A stretch of 64,000 nucleotides of DNA from Candidatus Atabeyarchaeum deiterrae (lineage in GTDB: Archaea; Asgardarchaeota; Atabeyarchaeia; Atabeyarchaeales; Atabeyarchaeaceae): contig CP147780.1 of the NCBI GenBank assembly GCA_037310415.1, forward strand, positions 832,001-896,000, read 5' to 3'. Numbering within the stretch: the first letter of the stretch is position 1; the number at the start of each line of letters is the position of its first letter. This document shows positions 41,775 to 50,370 of this stretch, piece after piece. The translations under genes and the position numbers were made by a program. Under the pieces are notes generated by a model. The model ran no database searches and was not told the DNA's origin. It saw nothing but the letters and a program-made list of their open reading frames with translations.

Positions 41775-43178
41775 CTGATTGAGAAGTTCTTTTCACCAAG
41801 AAGCATAGCCGTTGTCGGTGCGTCAAACAACCCAAACAGGTTTGGCTACAACGTGATGACGAATCTCATCGAAGCAGGCTTTGACGGGGATGTTTTTCCC
41901 GTGAGTCTGAAAGAAAGCATAGTATTTGACAGGGTAGCATACAAGAGCATACTAGACGTACCTGGAGCTGTAGATCTGGCTATCATGATCATACCAGCAA
42001 CCACAGTTCCCAGCGCTGTTGAGGAGTGCGGCAAAAAGGGAATCAAGGCAATTAGCATACTTTCTGGCGGTTTCAGTGAGGTCGGAAGAGAGGGAACTGA
42101 ACTCGAAGAGGAAGTCACGAATACTGCTAAACGATGCGGAATAAGAGTAGTCGGTCCCAACTGCGTCGGAACAATGAACACCCGCAAGAATCTAAACGCC
42201 TCCTTTGTAATGCGATCCATCAAAGGAAACATGGGACTCATCACTCAAAGTGGTGCACTTGGTGCATCATGTGCATATGTATCTAAGAGAGAAATGCTCG
42301 GCTTCAGCAAATTTGTCAACTTAGGCAATGCTTCTGACGTATCCGTCCCCGAAATCATACGATACTATACGCAGGATCCTGAAACCCGCGTGATCGGAAT
42401 ATACTTGGAAGGAGTAAAAGACGGTCGAAAATTCTTGGACGCTATCGGCGAAGCCACACCCATAAAGCCAATAGTGATTGTTAAAGCGGGCCGAACCGAA
42501 CAAGGTGCAAGAGCAGCATCGTCGCACACGGGATCACTTGCAGGATCAGACAAGATCTACAAAGCAATATTCAAGCAAAAAGGAGTAACGAGAGTCGGCT
42601 CATTATTCGAGTTAATCGACGTGGCCAAAGCTTTTACCAAACAACCCCTACCAAAAGGAAAACGCGTAGGAATAATAACCAACGCAGGCGGCGCGGGGGT
42701 ACTCGCTACAGATGCGTCCTCAGATTACGGCTTAACCATCTCATCATTAACACAGGAAACTGTAAAGTCCCTTAGAGCATTCCTGCCAGACGTTGCCATC
42801 CTCAACAATCCGGTCGACATCATTGCAAGCGCCAACAAAGATTGCTACCGCAAAACTACGGAAACTGTGGCTTCTGACGTGAATACTGATGCGTTGATTG
42901 TCAACTGTGTTGTTCCAACTTTCTTGGGCATGAAGCCTAGTGAGCATGCTGAAGGTGTTGTGGAAGCTTATAATAATTCAGTCAAAAGGCAGGGCAAGCT
43001 CCTCGTTTGTTGCTGGATGGCAGGGGAGCTAGCTGACCCCGGAAGAGAGATCCTTGAAAACGTAGGTATACCGGCGTACTCCTCTCCAGAAAGAGCAGCC
43101 CTAGCGGTCTCATGCTTGGCGAATTACAATGAATTCGCAACTAGGATCAAGAAACAGAGGAAAGAAAGAGATGGTTAG
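41775..43178 (+). CDS. acdA: ADP-forming acyl/acetyl-CoA synthetase alpha subunit (probable CTG start)
   Basis: Motifs FSPRSIAVVGAS, GPNCVG, TQSGA, ASSHTGSLAG (phospho-His), TNAGG.G and NPVD. Confidence 0.88.
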   Translation: MIEKFFSPRSIAVVGASNNPNRFGYNVMTNLIEAGFDGDVFPVSLKESIVFDRVAYKSILDVPGAVDLAIMIIPATTVPSAVEECGKKGIKAISILSGGFSEVGREGTELEEEVTNTAKRCGIRVVGPNCVGTMNTRKNLNASFVMRSIKGNMGLITQSGALGASCAYVSKREMLGFSKFVNLGNASDVSVPEIIRYYTQDPETRVIGIYLEGVKDGRKFLDAIGEATPIKPIVIVKAGRTEQGARAASSHTGSLAGSDKIYKAIFKQKGVTRVGSLFELIDVAKAFTKQPLPKGKRVGIITNAGGAGVLATDASSDYGLTISSLTQETVKSLRAFLPDVAILNNPVDIIASANKDCYRKTTETVASDVNTDALIVNCVVPTFLGMKPSEHAEGVVEAYNNSVKRQGKLLVCCWMAGELADPGREILENVGIPAYSSPERAALAVSCLANYNEFATRIKKQRKERDG

Positions 43179-44208
43179 AGATCATTTGCCAGTCTTCAGA
43201 GAAGGAGATTTTCTCGAAACCCGCGACAACTTGATTTTCGACGTAAAAGGACTTCTTCACCCGCATGATAGAGTAATCGCTTTTCTCAGGTACTACCCCT
43301 CCGAAGACGGCGAAAGGATAAGAGAAGGGGTAAGATATCGAAAGGTATACTCTCTAGATGAAAGATTCAGTGTTCTCAAAGACAAGTTTCCTTCATACGT
43401 TTACTTCGACAAGGTCTATGACTCAATAATGCAAGGCGTACCAGTGAACGATGTAGCACGCCTGTACCAACCAACTGAGAAACTGACAGAGATGTCAAGC
43501 AACCGCGCAACTCTAGACAAATTCGAAAGAGACTCATTGGAGTTCTGTGAAATCCTTTCTGGCTGTGCTTCTGTCAACATCAATAGACTGGGTTTGAGCG
43601 GCTCAATTCTAGTAGGTCTACACAACTTAAAATCAGACATTGACATAATTGTCTACGGTTCTGAGAGCTGTCTCGCAGTATATGGAGCGTTGAATAATCT
43701 TTACAGTAATGCAGACTCCTCAATAAGACCTTACAACGACGCAGAACTGAAAAAATTGTTCAGCTTCAGGTCAGCTGATACTGTTACTAGGTGGGAATCC
43801 TTCCTAAGAACTGAGAGAAGAAAGCGGCTTCAAGGAAAATTCAAAAACTACGAGTACTTCCTGCGGTTCATCAAAGACTGGAAGGAATTGAAGCTGAACT
43901 ATGGAGATCTAACCTACAGATCTCTCGGAAAGGTAACCATCAAAGCCGAAGTCGCCGACGATAGTGAAGCGCTCTTCACCCCATGTATCTACAAGATCAA
44001 GAATGCTGAAATAGTCGAGGAACAAGAAGCGAGAGAACTCATCATAGACGAAATTGCCTCTTTTCGAGGAAGATTTTGTGAAGTTGCTCGGAATGAAGAG
44101 CCCATAAGTGCTAGAGGAAAACTGGAACTTGTTATCGACAAGTCTGGCAACACTCATCATCGCGTTATCGTTGGCGGAGAGAAAGATGATTTTCTGACGC
44201 TATCATAG
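43171..44208 (+). CDS. Uncharacterised Pol-beta-superfamily nucleotidyltransferase (COG1665-like)
   Basis: GLSGSILVGLH...SDIDIIVYG (GS..DxD). Overlaps the acdA stop. Confidence 0.78.
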   Translation: MVRDHLPVFREGDFLETRDNLIFDVKGLLHPHDRVIAFLRYYPSEDGERIREGVRYRKVYSLDERFSVLKDKFPSYVYFDKVYDSIMQGVPVNDVARLYQPTEKLTEMSSNRATLDKFERDSLEFCEILSGCASVNINRLGLSGSILVGLHNLKSDIDIIVYGSESCLAVYGALNNLYSNADSSIRPYNDAELKKLFSFRSADTVTRWESFLRTERRKRLQGKFKNYEYFLRFIKDWKELKLNYGDLTYRSLGKVTIKAEVADDSEALFTPCIYKIKNAEIVEEQEARELIIDEIASFRGRFCEVARNEEPISARGKLELVIDKSGNTHHRVIVGGEKDDFLTLS

Positions 44209-44252
44209 TCAGGGTGAGAGACCTGACAATTCGAAAAGGAATGTGAAACCCA

Positions 44253-45329
44253 TTGAGAAAACCCAAAGATCGCGATTTCATAAGGACGACAGAAGACCTC
44301 TTATTTTGTGTTGTCGGTTGCCTCCATCCGCATGACAGATTGTTATCTTACCTCAAGTATATCCCAAGTGACAGCGGGATTTGGGCTTCAGGAGATCTGC
44401 ATTTTAAGAGAATGATACCATACTATTCTGCCAAGTCCGTTATCGACACTCACTCGTTTCTCAAGGAAGAATACCCCAAGTACCTGTTCTACAGCCGGGT
44501 GAACGACATAACTTTTCCAGCGGTTCCTCGCTCTGAGATCAAGGAATACTATGAGCCAGAAGTCAGGTTGAAAGAGTTAGTGGGAAGAAAAGGTGAACTT
44601 GATGAACTTCAGCGTAAGGCAGTGGAATTGGCTGAGTATCTCTCTAGTAGAAGTGGGGTTCCTCTTGATAGATTTGGGGTCACTGGCTCCATCCTGCTGG
44701 GGATTCACAATGTGTCAATCTCTGACGTTGACCTCACGATCTATGGACACGAGAATGCATTGCTTGTGAAACAGGCTCTAATTAGAGAATTCGAGAACAC
44801 TGAAAACCCATCAAGGTTAAGGCAACTCAACGAAAGTGAAGCAGAGGACTGGTGCACAAGGAAAACCAGACAATTCTCAATCGATTATGGATTTGCGGCG
44901 GCGATTTTGAGGAAGAAGTGGAATTTCGGATTCTATGAGGAAAAGTTCTTCTCTATTCATCCAATCAAACTTGACTCTGAGATAACTGAAATATACGGTG
45001 AAAAAGAATTTACGAGCAAAGGCACAGTGGAGATTATTGCAGACGTTGCTGATAGCACGGAGGCGCTATTCAACCCTGCGTCCTATAAAGTGAATGAAGT
45101 TCGGATACTAGAAGGGTTGAAGGTTAACGACATAGAAGAAGTAGTTTCCTTCGAAGGCTTCTTTTCTGACCTTGCTTCAAACAATGAATCGATCAGGGTG
45201 AAAGGGAATCTTGAAACTGTCACAGGCGTCAGAAGTGGGAAGAAGTACCACAGAGTAGTTGTCGGTTCGAAGAACGTCTCTTCCCCTGAGTATATAATCC
45301 CCATATCCCAACTAAAAGAAGAGATATAG
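44253..45329 (+). CDS. Second nucleotidyltransferase paralogue (COG1665-like)
   Basis: GVTGSILLGIH...SDVDLTIYG; collinear with the upstream paralogue. Confidence 0.78.
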   Translation: MRKPKDRDFIRTTEDLLFCVVGCLHPHDRLLSYLKYIPSDSGIWASGDLHFKRMIPYYSAKSVIDTHSFLKEEYPKYLFYSRVNDITFPAVPRSEIKEYYEPEVRLKELVGRKGELDELQRKAVELAEYLSSRSGVPLDRFGVTGSILLGIHNVSISDVDLTIYGHENALLVKQALIREFENTENPSRLRQLNESEAEDWCTRKTRQFSIDYGFAAAILRKKWNFGFYEEKFFSIHPIKLDSEITEIYGEKEFTSKGTVEIIADVADSTEALFNPASYKVNEVRILEGLKVNDIEEVVSFEGFFSDLASNNESIRVKGNLETVTGVRSGKKYHRVVVGSKNVSSPEYIIPISQLKEEI

Positions 45330-45338
45330 AATACATAA

Positions 45339-45378
45339 ATCACAGGATAAACTGGTTAATCCAGTCTATCTTGCTCAT
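45339..45378 (-). promoter_or_regulatory. Candidate eukaryote-like SECIS element 2
   Basis: mRNA reads AUGAG-CAAGAUAGACUGG-AUUAA-CCAGUUUAUCCUG-UGAU: RUGAN/NGAN core and a 13-position helix with one mismatch. Confidence 0.55.
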
Positions 45379-45412
45379 CCGCAAAGGGGTTCAAATGACC
45401 TTTGCAAAGGTT

Positions 45413-45458
45413 GTCCCCACCGGCCACCTTTTTTGAGGCTTTGCGCCGGCTGGTTCAT
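45413..45458 (-). promoter_or_regulatory. Candidate eukaryote-like SECIS element 1 (form 2), overlapping the vhuU stop codon
   Basis: mRNA reads AUGAA-CCAGCCGGC-GCAAA-GCCU-CAAAAA-AGGU-G-GCCGGUGG-GGAC: core quartet, GC-rich helix, AAA bulge and ministem. Confidence 0.7.
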
Positions 45459-45604
45459 CCGCTTCCAATCTGAACCTCTTTCTTGAGTATCTCCTTGTTG
45501 TTTTCGTCTAAGACAAGGAGATGTGCTGCACACGAAAGTCAACAGTCGTAGCAGCGGACGACCATCTCCAACAGGTTAAGCACTTTCTCATCTACATCGG
45601 GCAT
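45455..45604 (-). CDS. vhuU: Selenocysteine-containing C-terminal peptide of a split [NiFeSe] hydrogenase large subunit
   Basis: Hand translation [49 protein letters not shown]. TGA at 45539-45541 occupies the first ligand position of the UxxC motif. GAGGT RBS; the upstream MvhA lacks this motif. Confidence 0.92.
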
Positions 45605-45632
45605 GTTTTTCTACCTCTTGTTTCTAGACAAA

Positions 45633-47000
45633 TTAGATTTTGATCATCGGCTTTGGTAACTTCAGCGTCTCATACACTTTGTCTTCAATTACCTGCTTGG
45701 CAATAATCTTCAGCGACTTCTCTATCGCCCCGACATTGTTATTAGTGGCAACTATGAGGTTTGCCTTGGTTATGATTCCTTCCTTGTTCGTCCAGTAGTT
45801 GTGGACTAGTAGTCCTCTTGGTGCTTCCACAACGCCAGCGCCGACCCCTTCCCGTGGCTCAACTGTTTCAAGTTTGTAGTCTTTGCTCACGATATCGGGA
45901 TCTTCAAGCAACTTCTTGGCTTTTCCTATGGCGTCGAGTAGCTCAATGACTCTCGCCCAGTGATAAGCAAATGTAGCATGGCACGGCCTTCCGACCTTGT
46001 CTCTGAACTGTTTCAGAGCTTCGTTTCCTCGGGGTGTTGCCATTCGGTCCGCTACATTTATTCTTGCCAATGGCCCGCCTCTCCACAATCCATTTGGGTA
46101 GCCAGCTGGTTTGTAGAATACATGTGTTGCGTAGCAGTGTGGAACAACCTGTTCCCCGACGACATCCATGTATTTCTGGGTCGGAGTGTCTGACTCGATC
46201 TTGCCTAATGGAGACACCACTCTGATGTTACCGTCATAGAAGTTGTGTTCCCCATTCTGGGTCAGTCCGACATAGTATGTCTCGAACACTCCAATTTTGG
46301 TTATGACATCCCAATAGTCTTCAACGATCTTCAACAAGAGTCCAGCAGTGAACTCACCAAGCTCCATGGCTCTATCCATTCTCTTGAGCCACTCATCTCT
46401 CTTCCCCTCAGTGAGTCCCTTGGTCATTCCTCCAGGAATTGCTGTGACTGGGTGAACAGACTTCCCTCCGATTTCCGCGCAAAGTTCTTGGCCGTGTTTC
46501 ATAAGTTCAATGGCCTTCTTGCCCGCGTCTGGCATTTTGTTGATTACAGTCACAACATTACGAACCTCTGGTGGCGCGAAGGGTCCCAAGAGAAAATCTG
46601 GGGCTGCAAGCACGTAGAGGTGGAGTGCGTGACTGCTAATCTGCTTTGCTAGCAAGAGCAGTTCTCTTAGCTTCTTCGCCGGTTCCGGCGGGTTAATATC
46701 CCAGGCGGCTTCAACCGCTTTCACAGATGCTAGGTGGTGTGGCTCAGGACAAATACCACAGATGCGAGGTGCTATTATACGCGCATCTTCAGCAAGCCTC
46801 CCTTCGAGGAACTTCTCGAAGAACCGAGCAGAAGTCACGTTGAATTGAACGTCAGAGACCTTACCTTTAGTAAGCTTGATTGTGATCGAACCATGCCCTT
46901 CCAGTCGAGTAACAGGATCGATCTTGATGATCTCGCTTTCTTTTTCGGCCTTCGTTGAGCTAACTTTCTCAGCTTTGATTGGGCTCGCTTTGCTTTTCAT
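45633..47000 (-). CDS. mvhA: Group 3c hydrogenase large subunit lacking its C-terminal motif
   Basis: Motifs DPVTRLEGHG, RICGIC and EAPRGLLVHNY; no DPCxxC at the C-terminus. Confidence 0.93.
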   Translation of the reverse strand: MKSKASPIKAEKVSSTKAEKESEIIKIDPVTRLEGHGSITIKLTKGKVSDVQFNVTSARFFEKFLEGRLAEDARIIAPRICGICPEPHHLASVKAVEAAWDINPPEPAKKLRELLLLAKQISSHALHLYVLAAPDFLLGPFAPPEVRNVVTVINKMPDAGKKAIELMKHGQELCAEIGGKSVHPVTAIPGGMTKGLTEGKRDEWLKRMDRAMELGEFTAGLLLKIVEDYWDVITKIGVFETYYVGLTQNGEHNFYDGNIRVVSPLGKIESDTPTQKYMDVVGEQVVPHCYATHVFYKPAGYPNGLWRGGPLARINVADRMATPRGNEALKQFRDKVGRPCHATFAYHWARVIELLDAIGKAKKLLEDPDIVSKDYKLETVEPREGVGAGVVEAPRGLLVHNYWTNKEGIITKANLIVATNNNVGAIEKSLKIIAKQVIEDKVYETLKLPKPMIKI

Positions 47001-47910: not shown

Positions 47911-48396
47911 TTACTTCACTTCCACGCTATAAAGTTCCTTCTCGTCAAGGCCTTGTTTTCCTTTGCTATCCTTGAGAGGGTTCGGACCGATCTTTTTCAG
48001 AACCTTCACGTAATCCTTGATGACTTCTGCAAGCTTACTTCCCTCACTTGCTGATATCCATTCAAGACGAATACGCTGCGGCTCTAATCCCGCTTGCTCG
48101 ACGAGCTTCCTGAGAAGATGTATTCGCCGTTCTGTCTTGTAATTACCGTTGACATAGTGACAGTCGCCAGGGTGACAACCTGAGACAAGGACTCCGTCAG
48201 CACCCAACTCCAACCCTTTCATCACATACTCTGGGGCAAGGCGACTCGTACACATAACTCTGACAAGTCGCAGGTTAGGTGGGTATTGAATTCTGCTGGT
48301 TCCCGCCATATCGGCACCTGCATAAGTGCACCAGTTGCAGACAAGTCCAAGAATGTATGGCTCAAATTCGTCATTCTTCTCGTTGCTGTGACTCAT
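47911..48396 (-). CDS. mvhD: Hydrogenase [2Fe-2S] subunit D
   Basis: Motifs CNWCTYAGAD, VMCT, GCHPGDCHY and WISASEG. Confidence 0.94.
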   Translation of the reverse strand: MSHSNEKNDEFEPYILGLVCNWCTYAGADMAGTSRIQYPPNLRLVRVMCTSRLAPEYVMKGLELGADGVLVSGCHPGDCHYVNGNYKTERRIHLLRKLVEQAGLEPQRIRLEWISASEGSKLAEVIKDYVKVLKKIGPNPLKDSKGKQGLDEKELYSVEVK

Positions 48397-48420
48397 GAGA
48401 CAATTCCTCCCCTATTTGCT

Positions 48421-50370
48421 CTACCTCTCTGCCAGTAATGCTTCAATTTGGGCAAGGATCTGTGAATCTTTGAAGTGGTTCTGGGTTATCGAGCCACTCG
48501 GGCATGTAGCGACACAGCACCCGCATCCCTTGCACAACACATTGTTTATCTTCGCTTTTCCATCTTCAATTGATATTGCACCAAAGGGACACATTGCTAT
48601 GCATGACAAGCAGCCGCTGCACTTGTCAGTGTTGACGATGCTGTAGAATGGCTCTACCTCAACTTTACCTTTAGACATAAGTGATGCGGCACTTGATGCG
48701 GCTCCTTTTGCCTGCGCGACTGCATCAGGAATGTCTTTCGGTCCCTGTACAACTCCAGCTATAAAGACTCCATCAGTAAGAGTGTCAACTGGTCTGAGCT
48801 TCGGGTGAGCCTCAAGATAGAAACCATCGGTGCTACGTGATATCTTAAGTAGGTGTTGGACTTCCTCCACATCATTTCTTGGCACGAGACCCACACTGAG
48901 GACAACAAGGTCAGCTTCAACTTCAACTGGTCTTCCAAGCTCAGTGCTCTCTGCACGAACAAATAGGTTCTTAGTCTTGGGATCCTCCAAGACCTCAGCT
49001 GCTCTGCCTCGAATATAGTTGACGCCGTACTCCCTTTGAGCGCGCTCATAGAATTCTTCATAGCCTTTGCCGAACGCACGGACATCCATGTAGAGCACAT
49101 AGGTGGCTGTATCTGGATGATGTTCCTTAAGTTGTCTAGCATGTTTCATTGCGTACATGCAGCAAACGCGAGAACAGTACGCATTCTTTCTCACGTTTCT
49201 CGATCCGACGCATTGGATGAAAACTACTCGCTTAGGTACTTTCAAGTCGGAGGGTCTGACAACTTCGCCTCCTGTGGCTCCAAATGCACTAAGCATTCGT
49301 TCTACTTGCATACCGGTCACGACATTGTCAAATGTTCCGTATCCGTATTCTCCCGTAGGATCATAAGGGTCGTAGCCAGTCGCAGCTATGACTGTTCCAA
49401 CCTCAACCTCTTCTTCGGTTGGCTGCTGGTTGAAGTCAATAGCTTCGGGTTCGCACGCCTTAACGCAGAGTTTGCATTTCACACATTTATCCATGTCAAT
49501 AGTGTACTTGTTGGGTACGGCTTGAGGAAAAGCCATGTAGATAGCCTTCCTAGGCTTAAGTCCTAATTCAAATTCGTTGGGAACGTAAACGGGGCACACC
49601 TCTTCGCATTTGCCGCATCCATTACACTTGGATTCAATGACATATCTTGGCTTTTTCTCTATCTTCGCTTTGAAGTTTCCAACATACCCCTCTATGCTTT
49701 TGACTTCTGAATAGGCATGGAGTTTTATGTTTGGATGACGACCTACTTCAGTCATCTTAGGGGTGAGAATGCATGCTGAGCAGTCCATGGTTGGGAAAGT
49801 CTTATCGAGTTGGATCATTCGTCCGCCGATCGTGGTGTTCTTCTCAACTAGGTGAACTTCAAAACCCGCCTCTGCGAGATCCAAGGCAGCCGAGATCCCC
49901 GCTATTCCTCCGCCTATTATCAAGGAACTTCTCTTCACAGGGACTTCGATTACTTGTAGCGGTTCTATCTTTGAGGCTTTGGCTACAGCAGACCGTATGA
50001 GATCCTTTGCTATTTGAAGAGCTTTCTCAGGCTCGTGCATATGGCACCAAGTGTCGTGCTCCCTGATATTGGCTTGTTCAAATAGATAGGGATTAATGCC
50101 TGCACCTTTGATAGCATTTCTAAACGTCGGCTCATGCATCAGTGGGCTGCACGCTGCCACTACTACTCTATTCAGTTTCTGCTCCTTGACGTCATTTTTT
50201 ATCATTTCCTGACCAGGATCGCTACACATGAACCTGTAATCCTTAGCTAGCACAACATTGGGCAATTTCGAAGCATAATCTGCGAGCCCTTTGACGTCAA
50301 CAACGCCAGCGATATTCGTGCCACAGTGGCAAACATAAACTCCTATTCGAAGCTCTGATTCATCTGCCAT
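48421..50370 (-). CDS. hdrA: Heterodisulfide reductase flavoprotein subunit A
   Basis: Motifs CHCGTNI, GGGIAG, DKTFPTMDCSACI, QCVGSR, CSRVCCMYA and PKDIPD; ferredoxin motifs. Confidence 0.96.
   Translation of the reverse strand: MADESELRIGVYVCHCGTNIAGVVDVKGLADYASKLPNVVLAKDYRFMCSDPGQEMIKNDVKEQKLNRVVVAACSPLMHEPTFRNAIKGAGINPYLFEQANIREHDTWCHMHEPEKALQIAKDLIRSAVAKASKIEPLQVIEVPVKRSSLIIGGGIAGISAALDLAEAGFEVHLVEKNTTIGGRMIQLDKTFPTMDCSACILTPKMTEVGRHPNIKLHAYSEVKSIEGYVGNFKAKIEKKPRYVIESKCNGCGKCEEVCPVYVPNEFELGLKPRKAIYMAFPQAVPNKYTIDMDKCVKCKLCVKACEPEAIDFNQQPTEEEVEVGTVIAATGYDPYDPTGEYGYGTFDNVVTGMQVERMLSAFGATGGEVVRPSDLKVPKRVVFIQCVGSRNVRKNAYCSRVCCMYAMKHARQLKEHHPDTATYVLYMDVRAFGKGYEEFYERAQREYGVNYIRGRAAEVLEDPKTKNLFVRAESTELGRPVEVEADLVVLSVGLVPRNDVEEVQHLLKISRSTDGFYLEAHPKLRPVDTLTDGVFIAGVVQGPKDIPDAVAQAKGAASSAASLMSKGKVEVEPFYSIVNTDKCSGCLSCIAMCPFGAISIEDGKAKINNVLCKGCGCCVATCPSGSITQNHFKDSQILAQIEALLAER

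Follow-up and report, generated by a model that had tools for sequence, protein, structure and literature searches.

The 3' end of the vhuU gene of Candidatus Atabeyarchaeum deiterrae raises the question of how many SECIS elements its mRNA carries, and of how two UGA codons of one short reading frame are told apart, the first specifying Sec and the second ending translation. An earlier note on this DNA had placed two tandem eukaryote-like SECIS elements at this site, the first (element 1) built on the vhuU stop codon and the second (element 2) lying beyond a spacer. Positions given here are those of the window, i.e., the whole analysed stretch of 64,000 nt. Within it, vhuU is the last gene of an operon with the order hdrA-vhuD-vhuG-vhuA-vhuU, and an ORF on the opposite strand runs towards its end:

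50370-48421, minus strand: hdrA (Pfam operon context, ORF list)
48396-47911, minus strand: vhuD (Pfam operon context, ORF list)
47908-46997, minus strand: vhuG (Pfam operon context, ORF list)
47000-45633, minus strand: vhuA (Pfam operon context, ORF list)
45604-45455, minus strand: vhuU, 49 codons, [NiFeSe] hydrogenase small selenopeptide (translation, Pfam operon context)
44253-45329, plus strand: convergent ORF, its end overlapped by the U-rich tail of element 2 (ORF list)

The in-frame Sec UGA of vhuU (45541-45539, minus strand) lies at the Ni-ligand position, in the DCU motif of the translation, and a DCU-x2-C-x2-H motif is common to 72 Asgard vhuU orthologues, whose loci provide an orthologue set of 67 unique 3' regions. 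Inspection of the window ORFs and of the upstream locus identifies this UGA as the single Sec codon of the whole hdrA-vhuD-vhuG-vhuA-vhuU operon. At 47911-50370, the operon's own hdrA and vhuD encode Cys in place of Sec, in uninterrupted ORFs of 649 and 161 aa; a paralogous hdrA-vhuD pair, each gene of which contains two UGA codons, is found 3-5 kb before the window start (G000 829353-826988), and a selD with one Sec UGA 3 kb past the window end (G000 899256-900278). The host genome is closed (2.76 Mb) and encodes SepSecS, PSTK and the Sec-containing selD, while a tRNA-Sec was not located in it with the RF01852 model, ARAGORN, Rfam scans of 202-214 kb or a motif scan. The sole RF01852 match (L001 1501-1609; G000:C1:549981-550088) was rejected as an ordinary tRNA with a long intron, scoring 54 bits on the general tRNA model and having the anticodon loop CUUACAA. 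The VhuA of the closest relative bears the name SRVP18_Atabeyarchaeia-1, and another relative is the Asgard isolate LC30; VhuU, HdrA, Prx-like and SPS selenoproteins with eukaryote-like SECIS have already been listed for the Atabeyarchaeia lineage (PMC11291895). Two adjacent plus-strand ORFs of 359 and 358 aa (43129-45329), neither with a Pfam match, converge on vhuU, and a similar ORF pair (353 and 351 aa) follows vhuU in the relative L281.

Element 1 (45413-45462, minus strand) is opened by the tetranucleotide that holds the vhuU stop, and its parts are the following:

45455-45458, minus strand: AUGA, 5' half of the kink-turn core, its UGA being the vhuU stop (sequence, orthologue counts)
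45416-45454, minus strand: P2, SECIS upper stem with AAA, ministem and apical loop, type II (folds, covariance model R1)
45413-45415, minus strand: GAC, of which GA (45415-45414) is the 3' half of the core (orthologue counts, alignment)

The octamer GCGGAUGA occurs twice on the minus strand (45462-45455 and 45382-45375), as had been noticed, and its first copy supplies the AUGA of element 1. Asgard SECIS elements are recognised by an upper stem that is preceded by AUGA (in rare cases GUGA or UUGA) and followed by GA/AA, and element 1 has AUGA and GA in these places. Nearly all vhuU 3' regions share this layout, with GGAUGA at the CDS end and, after it, a stem, AAA, and GA/AA with a C: GG precedes AUGA in 60/67 vhuU elements, C follows GA/AA in 57/67, and AAA stands 9-13 nt past the UGA in all 67 vhuU SECIS elements. 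The G preceding GAUGA can pair with the C following GA, and this G-C pair is present in 40/40 aligned sequences. The AAA bulge and the ministem that had been described for element 1 are both seen in the folds of P2, which comprise a 9-nt stem, unpaired AAA at 45442-45440, a ministem of 45439-45436 with 45429-45426 and an apical loop at 45435-45430.

A covariance model (R1) built from 53 type I vhuU SECIS of other Asgard lineages, and from none of the Atabeyarchaeia family, matches 45462-45413 including the stem (16.5 bits, E 8e-4 in 501 nt), as a model that is weak on type II elements (11-17 bits) and missed that of the family member L003. Across the 53 type I orthologues, 9/9 stem pairs of element 1 change on both sides, with 85% of cells paired, and the covariation score and percentage of pairing of P2 are reached by 0/500 shuffles; within the family, a C-G pair of this genome is U-A in L003. 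The core UGA is invariant in both orthologue alignments (A2, A3). In addition, the region of 161 nt folds better than shuffled sequences (z = -3.67), with 1/200 shuffles folding as well. The covariance model match and the covariation across orthologues thus bear out the proposal of a eukaryote-like SECIS whose AUGA contains the vhuU stop, including on the covariation check that had been suggested for it. No Rfam SECIS family matched 45250-45650 at E up to 10 and none reached its gathering score across the whole window, in keeping with the failure of SECISearch3 on Asgard elements reported in Huang 2024 (PMC11227280). We conclude that element 1 is, by its sequence, a genuine Asgard eukaryote-like SECIS of the type II form, and Sec insertion is predicted.

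The terminating UGA of vhuU (45457-45455) lies within the first AUGA of element 1. Among 69 Asgard genes, the vhuU stop is UGA in 65, and in 59 the tetranucleotide is AUGA with the core overlapping the stop. This overlap is frequent, not obligatory, because a few vhuU genes end in UAA or UAG upstream of AUGA; in L008, L125, L142 and L087 the CDS ends in this way, with the AUGA core 2-25 nt downstream. The last vhuU codon, usually GGA (Gly), provides the GGA of GGAUGA (45455-45460), so that the same bases encode the C-terminal residue and belong to the kink-turn loop; the exceptions to a final GGA are Gln, Asp or Glu codons (CAA, CAG, GAU, GAA), then UGA. One further locus, L014 (G010:C49), has downstream of vhuA a Loki-type vhuU with an in-frame TAA a few codons past the Sec motif (...VVDE*GTEIY...), which may be a pseudogene or an assembly error. 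A pattern scan of metagenomes for family-level vhuU ends (GTTCARATYGGA-N5-ATGA) returned 120 chance matches, none beside a vhuU motif. Reading through the stop UGA does stay open, as had been stated, for 32 more codons to the UAA at 45358-45356, but this frame is not conserved: its length in orthologues ranges from 0 to 81 codons (median 14), and the peptides are unrelated.

Between the two proposed elements, the earlier note had described a spacer holding a 14-nt palindrome. The palindrome is present at 45411-45398 as described; the word spacer does not hold, this being a conserved arm of the SECIS (P3), closed off by a helix (P1) that engages the end of the coding sequence:

45398-45411, minus strand: P3, accessory hairpin ACCUU-UGCA-AAGGU, identical with the 14-nt palindrome (orthologue 3' regions)
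45468-45481, minus strand: P1 5' strand (AAAGAGGUUCAGAU), inside the last vhuU codons (MFE fold, family consensus fold, covariation)
45383-45396, minus strand: P1 3' strand (AUUUGAACCCCUUU), closing a three-way junction (folds, family comparison)

A hairpin corresponding to P3 starts 0-2 nt after the 3' GA(C) in 66/67 vhuU 3' regions. Its stem has 4-7 bp, usually with CCC/GGG near the loop, its outer pairs vary (C-G, G-C, A-U, G-U, U-A), and its loop has GC in 65/66. Of 25 parsed hdrA-vhuD SECIS from the whole phylum, 24 are likewise followed by the hairpin, whose loop has GC in 21/24. The three-armed architecture recurs after the Sec-vhuD, selD and prxL genes of this genome, whose SECIS elements were located via their genes, a search of the genome with model R1 having yielded no match beyond its initial filter.

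P1 has a median of 8 contiguous pairs and at least 6 in all 66 parsed sequences. At this locus 45481-45468 pairs with 45396-45383 both in the local MFE fold and in the consensus fold of five Atabeyarchaeia-family sequences (this genome, L003, L004, L280 and L281; VhuA identity 82-86%), and a homologous 3' strand, ...CUCUUUG, is kept in 5/5 family members; the fold constrained to the three-way junction lies 2.9 kcal/mol above the unconstrained MFE fold. P1 covaries: in 27/28 Loki-type sequences the partners in the 3' UTR complement the synonymous third base of the last Val codon and that of the last Gly codon, the pairs being U-A or A-U at one site and U-A or C-G at the other. A P1+P2+P3 model made from Loki-type sequences only finds full-length matches in Helarchaeota- and Thorarchaeota-labelled contigs. 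In a model-fitted alignment of 42 sequences, the fit of which favours the model's structure, both partners change in 7/8 P1 pairs, and pairing extends to 92% of cells; sliding the P1 partners in this alignment cuts pairing to 26-44%, and the values for the structure as a whole (P1, P2, P3 plus the G-C stem) are not reached by any shuffle. In the sequences compared here, P1 and P2 are thus conserved and covarying, and P3 is conserved. In the main texts of Mariotti 2016, Huang 2024 and a 2026 review, we found no accessory arm or three-way junction mentioned.

The second hairpin lies outside this junction, between P1 and the convergent gene:

45339-45382, minus strand: element 2, lineage-specific hairpin with the second GCGGAUGA (45382-45375) (fold, terminator-like descriptor)
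45314-45339, minus strand: U-rich tail after element 2, UUUAU ... UUCUUUU (read from sequence)

Element 2 folds as AUGA (45378-45375), a 14-bp stem with one A.C mismatch, the 5-nt loop AUUAA and then UGAU (-15.2 kcal/mol). The stem consists of a perfect 10-bp part, 45370-45361 with 45355-45346 around the loop 45360-45356, and of four outer pairs, with GA at 45341-45340. A hairpin with AUGA and GA is thus found where it had been placed, and it has the AUGA...GA flanks around a stem by which SECIS are recognised; the comparisons below nevertheless do not support it as a SECIS. P1, P2 and P3 align in the five family loci, and the stretch from P1 to the convergent gene, roughly 25 to 100 nt, is unalignable and is filled by unrelated hairpins in L003 and L004. 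Element 2 is absent from the four closest family orthologues, and no counterpart was seen among the 67 unique 3' regions that the 72 vhuU loci provide; the conservation of an AUGA/GA core that had been put forward as a check accordingly fails for it. In L281 (L281:2865-3300), a second GGAUGA is found in the otherwise unrelated spacer after P1 (in ...UUUGGAUGAAGCGGAUGC...), which may be a sign that parts of the SECIS 5' half are copied repeatedly.

With a descriptor defined after the fact (AUGA, a stem of at least 12 bp with at most 1 mismatch, GA/AA), 20 matches were found on both strands of the 2.76 Mb, i.e., about 5e-4 expected per 130 nt, and requiring at least 14 bp leaves 3 matches genome-wide. 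Given how rare stems flanked in this way are in the genome, and given the exact repetition of the 8-mer GCGGAUGA, coincidence by itself probably does not account for the flanks of element 2; selection on them is not detectable among the sequences compared. Two other identities were considered and rejected. A plus-strand signal for the convergent gene finds no GA motifs on that strand and an ORF without in-frame UGA, and a box C/D or H/ACA sRNA is at odds with a perfect hairpin that has no guide regions, GGAUGA instead of RUGAUGA, and no CUGA or ACA box. Together with its tail, element 2 fits a terminator-like descriptor (10 pairs, 5-nt loop, 5 T in the next 8 bases), the consensus being of bacterial type and the host an archaeon. 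Archaeal termination is generally driven by U-tracts and a hairpin is not required, so that we infer, rather than observe, a 'terminator hairpin'. Element 2 is most likely the 3'-terminal hairpin of the operon transcript, ahead of a U-rich tract.

Three other explanations of the region have to be weighed against this. If the two hairpins were functional tandem SECIS, element 2 would either be a reserve SECIS for the Sec UGA or cause recoding of the terminal UGA, lengthening the protein by 32 residues, a reading favoured by its AUGA on the 5' side and UGAU on the 3' side of a stable hairpin, by the genome-wide rarity of AUGA-flanked hairpins of this kind, and by its agreement, if the top two pairs are opened, with the permissive definition of type I in Huang 2024 (upper stem of 7-15 bp, loop of 8-20 nt). 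That definition, however, is satisfied 4376 times genome-wide, which amounts to an expectation of about 0.10 in 130 nt, and the hallmarks that the vhuU SECIS share are missing: neither the folds nor the sequence of element 2 contain an unpaired AAA anywhere, a feature invariant in 67/67 vhuU SECIS; its stem runs for 14 bp as opposed to 9-10 bp before the AAA in real elements; and no lower helix surrounds it, its 5' flank being taken by the P1 3' strand of element 1 and its 3' flank being U-rich, without a P3-type hairpin. Model R1 gives element 2 8.1 bits by aligning only the linear GCGGAUGA..GAC and deleting the stem, and thus fails to match its structure. Adding its absence from the four family orthologues, a readthrough frame conserved in neither length nor sequence, and an operon with only one Sec codon to be served, we regard tandem SECIS as very improbable.

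Element 2 could instead be a kink-turn or another protein-binding hairpin with a non-Sec role (e.g. in L7Ae binding or mRNA stability), possibly what remains of a recent, partial duplication of the 5' half of the SECIS. The exact GCGGAUGA repeat and the rarity of AUGA-stem-GA hairpins speak for this, and the second GGAUGA in the L281 spacer hints at repeated partial copies. A kink-turn requires a canonical helix beyond its bulge as well, and no such helix can form at element 2, where UUUAUG follows GA and the 5' flank belongs to P1; moreover, the hairpin is not conserved, and the GC of the GCGGAUGA repeat is the conserved end of the P1 3' strand, so that only GGAUGA is new sequence. This, too, is very improbable. 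The last explanation concerns the alternative stem that had been pointed out between GCAAAGG (45405-45399) and CCUUUGC (45387-45381), which might compete with P1 and P3 and switch the SECIS on or off. The stem is present in the sequence and is used in the unconstrained folds of the 161-nt and 173-nt regions, and the energy gap to the three-way-junction fold is small, at the 2.9 kcal/mol already given. It is nonetheless absent as such from 3/4 family relatives, its length being 7 bp here, 7 bp including wobbles in L281, and no more than 4-5 bp in the other three relatives (L280, L003 and L004), whereas P1 and P3 are conserved and P1 covaries; the complementarity itself is automatic, because the 3' half of P3 and the 5' strand of P1 both resemble CAAAGG. 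A conformational switch therefore appears to us very improbable.

Taken together, these observations suggest with good probability that the vhuU mRNA has one functional SECIS, a three-armed element at 45481-45383 with a self-melting core, and not two, element 2 being a terminal hairpin outside the junction. In this element P1 would be formed by the last vhuU codons paired with the 3' UTR, P2 would be the published eukaryote-like hairpin, and P3 would sit immediately behind the 3' GA. The junction would still be intact, and able to recruit the Sec-specific elongation factor with Sec-tRNA, when the ribosome is decoding the Sec UGA some 58 nt upstream of P1; once the A site arrives at the second UGA, P1 and the core would be unwound, and this UGA, as part of the unwound core, would therefore be read as stop. 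That a ribosome at the second UGA must already have melted element 1 had been proposed for this locus and is borne out, the idea being in print in Mariotti 2016 and Huang 2024: the AUGA of VhuU.1 doubles as the UGA stop and proximity precludes recoding (Mariotti 2016, PMC4989117), and UGA stops often overlap AUGA (Huang 2024, PMC11227280). The notion of a minimal distance is thus that of Mariotti 2016, to which P1 would add a further part that must melt.

The element compares with several known structures. It resembles the lokiSECIS of VhuU, VhuD and PrxL (PMC4989117) in its AUGA, 9-bp stem, A-rich apical start, 3' GA/AA and position at the CDS end, but the Loki apical loop has 11 nt where the apical region of element 1 is a ministem, and the published model stops at the 3' GA/AA, with neither a P1 reaching into the CDS nor a P3. 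Among the Asgard eSECIS-like types I and II (PMC11227280), element 1 fits the definition of type II, i.e., a GA_[G/A]A core, an upper stem of 7-15 bp, an adenine-containing bulge of 4-12 nt, and a 2-8 bp ministem with a 2-6 nt loop. The same work (Huang 2024, PMC11227280) reported, for the vhuU gene family, the lower stem [U/C]GG_C[C/U][A/G]; there, however, the stretch from the core to the lower stem is an internal loop, and here it is a conserved hairpin. That survey found most Sec use in the Loki/Hel, Thor and Sif/Borr clades, while the present locus is from Atabeyarchaeia. Selenoproteins of the same lineage were described in the Atabeyarchaeia/Freyarchaeia study (Valentin-Alvarado 2024, PMC11291895), the main text of which does not describe the structure of the vhuU SECIS and the supplementary text of which does not contain the words 'SECIS' or 'VhuU'.

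With eukaryotic type II SECIS (Rfam SECIS_1, RF00031), element 1 shares the AUGA/GA quartet, an unpaired AAR after about one helical turn, the ministem with apical loop and the placement in the 3' UTR; it differs in having no Rfam match, a shorter upper stem, an overlap with the CDS, and a third arm inserted into the 3' strand, at the point where the core would otherwise run on to the lower helix. The arrangement is also reminiscent of k-junctions (Wang 2014, PMC4005666), three-way junctions on kink-turn elements in which a non-canonical helix led by G.A/A.G pairs (here P2) meets two helices, although the topology here is inferred from sequence alone. The mRNAs of vertebrate SelP and Metridium MsrB do have two SECIS in one 3' UTR, as the earlier note proposed for vhuU, but they contain many Sec codons (PMC4989117), as opposed to one here, next to an element 2 that has no SECIS hallmarks.

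A broader proposal, which we advance tentatively and consider nearly as apt to hold as to fail, is that the functional Asgard SECIS would be a k-junction-like three-way RNA, made of a covarying P1 able to reach into the CDS, the AUGA/GA arm P2, and the sequence-conserved third arm P3 (typically CCC-YGCNN-GGG), set 0-2 nt beyond the 3' GA. P3 might then be a platform for an archaeal SECIS-binding factor or for the Sec elongation factor, lost or replaced on the way to the eukaryotic SECIS bound by SBP2; no SBP2 is known in Asgard archaea (PMC4989117).

The finding is mostly a rediscovery, that of a known Asgard SECIS in a new lineage, joined to the over-reading of a neighbouring hairpin: Asgard SECIS whose AUGA is the stop have been known since 2016, and an Atabeyarchaeia VhuU selenoprotein was reported in 2024. 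Recognising element 2 as a lookalike averts a false claim of tandem SECIS. The part worth following is the three-way junction with its conserved P3, common to the vhuU, hdrA-vhuD, selD and prxL SECIS. Search models for Asgard SECIS end at the 3' GA and treat the rest as an internal loop, and the addition of P1 and P3 should sharpen the prediction of SECIS and selenoproteins. The three-armed structure would also provide a defined RNA with which to look for the archaeal SECIS-binding protein that is still missing, a matter that bears on the origin of the eukaryotic Sec system.
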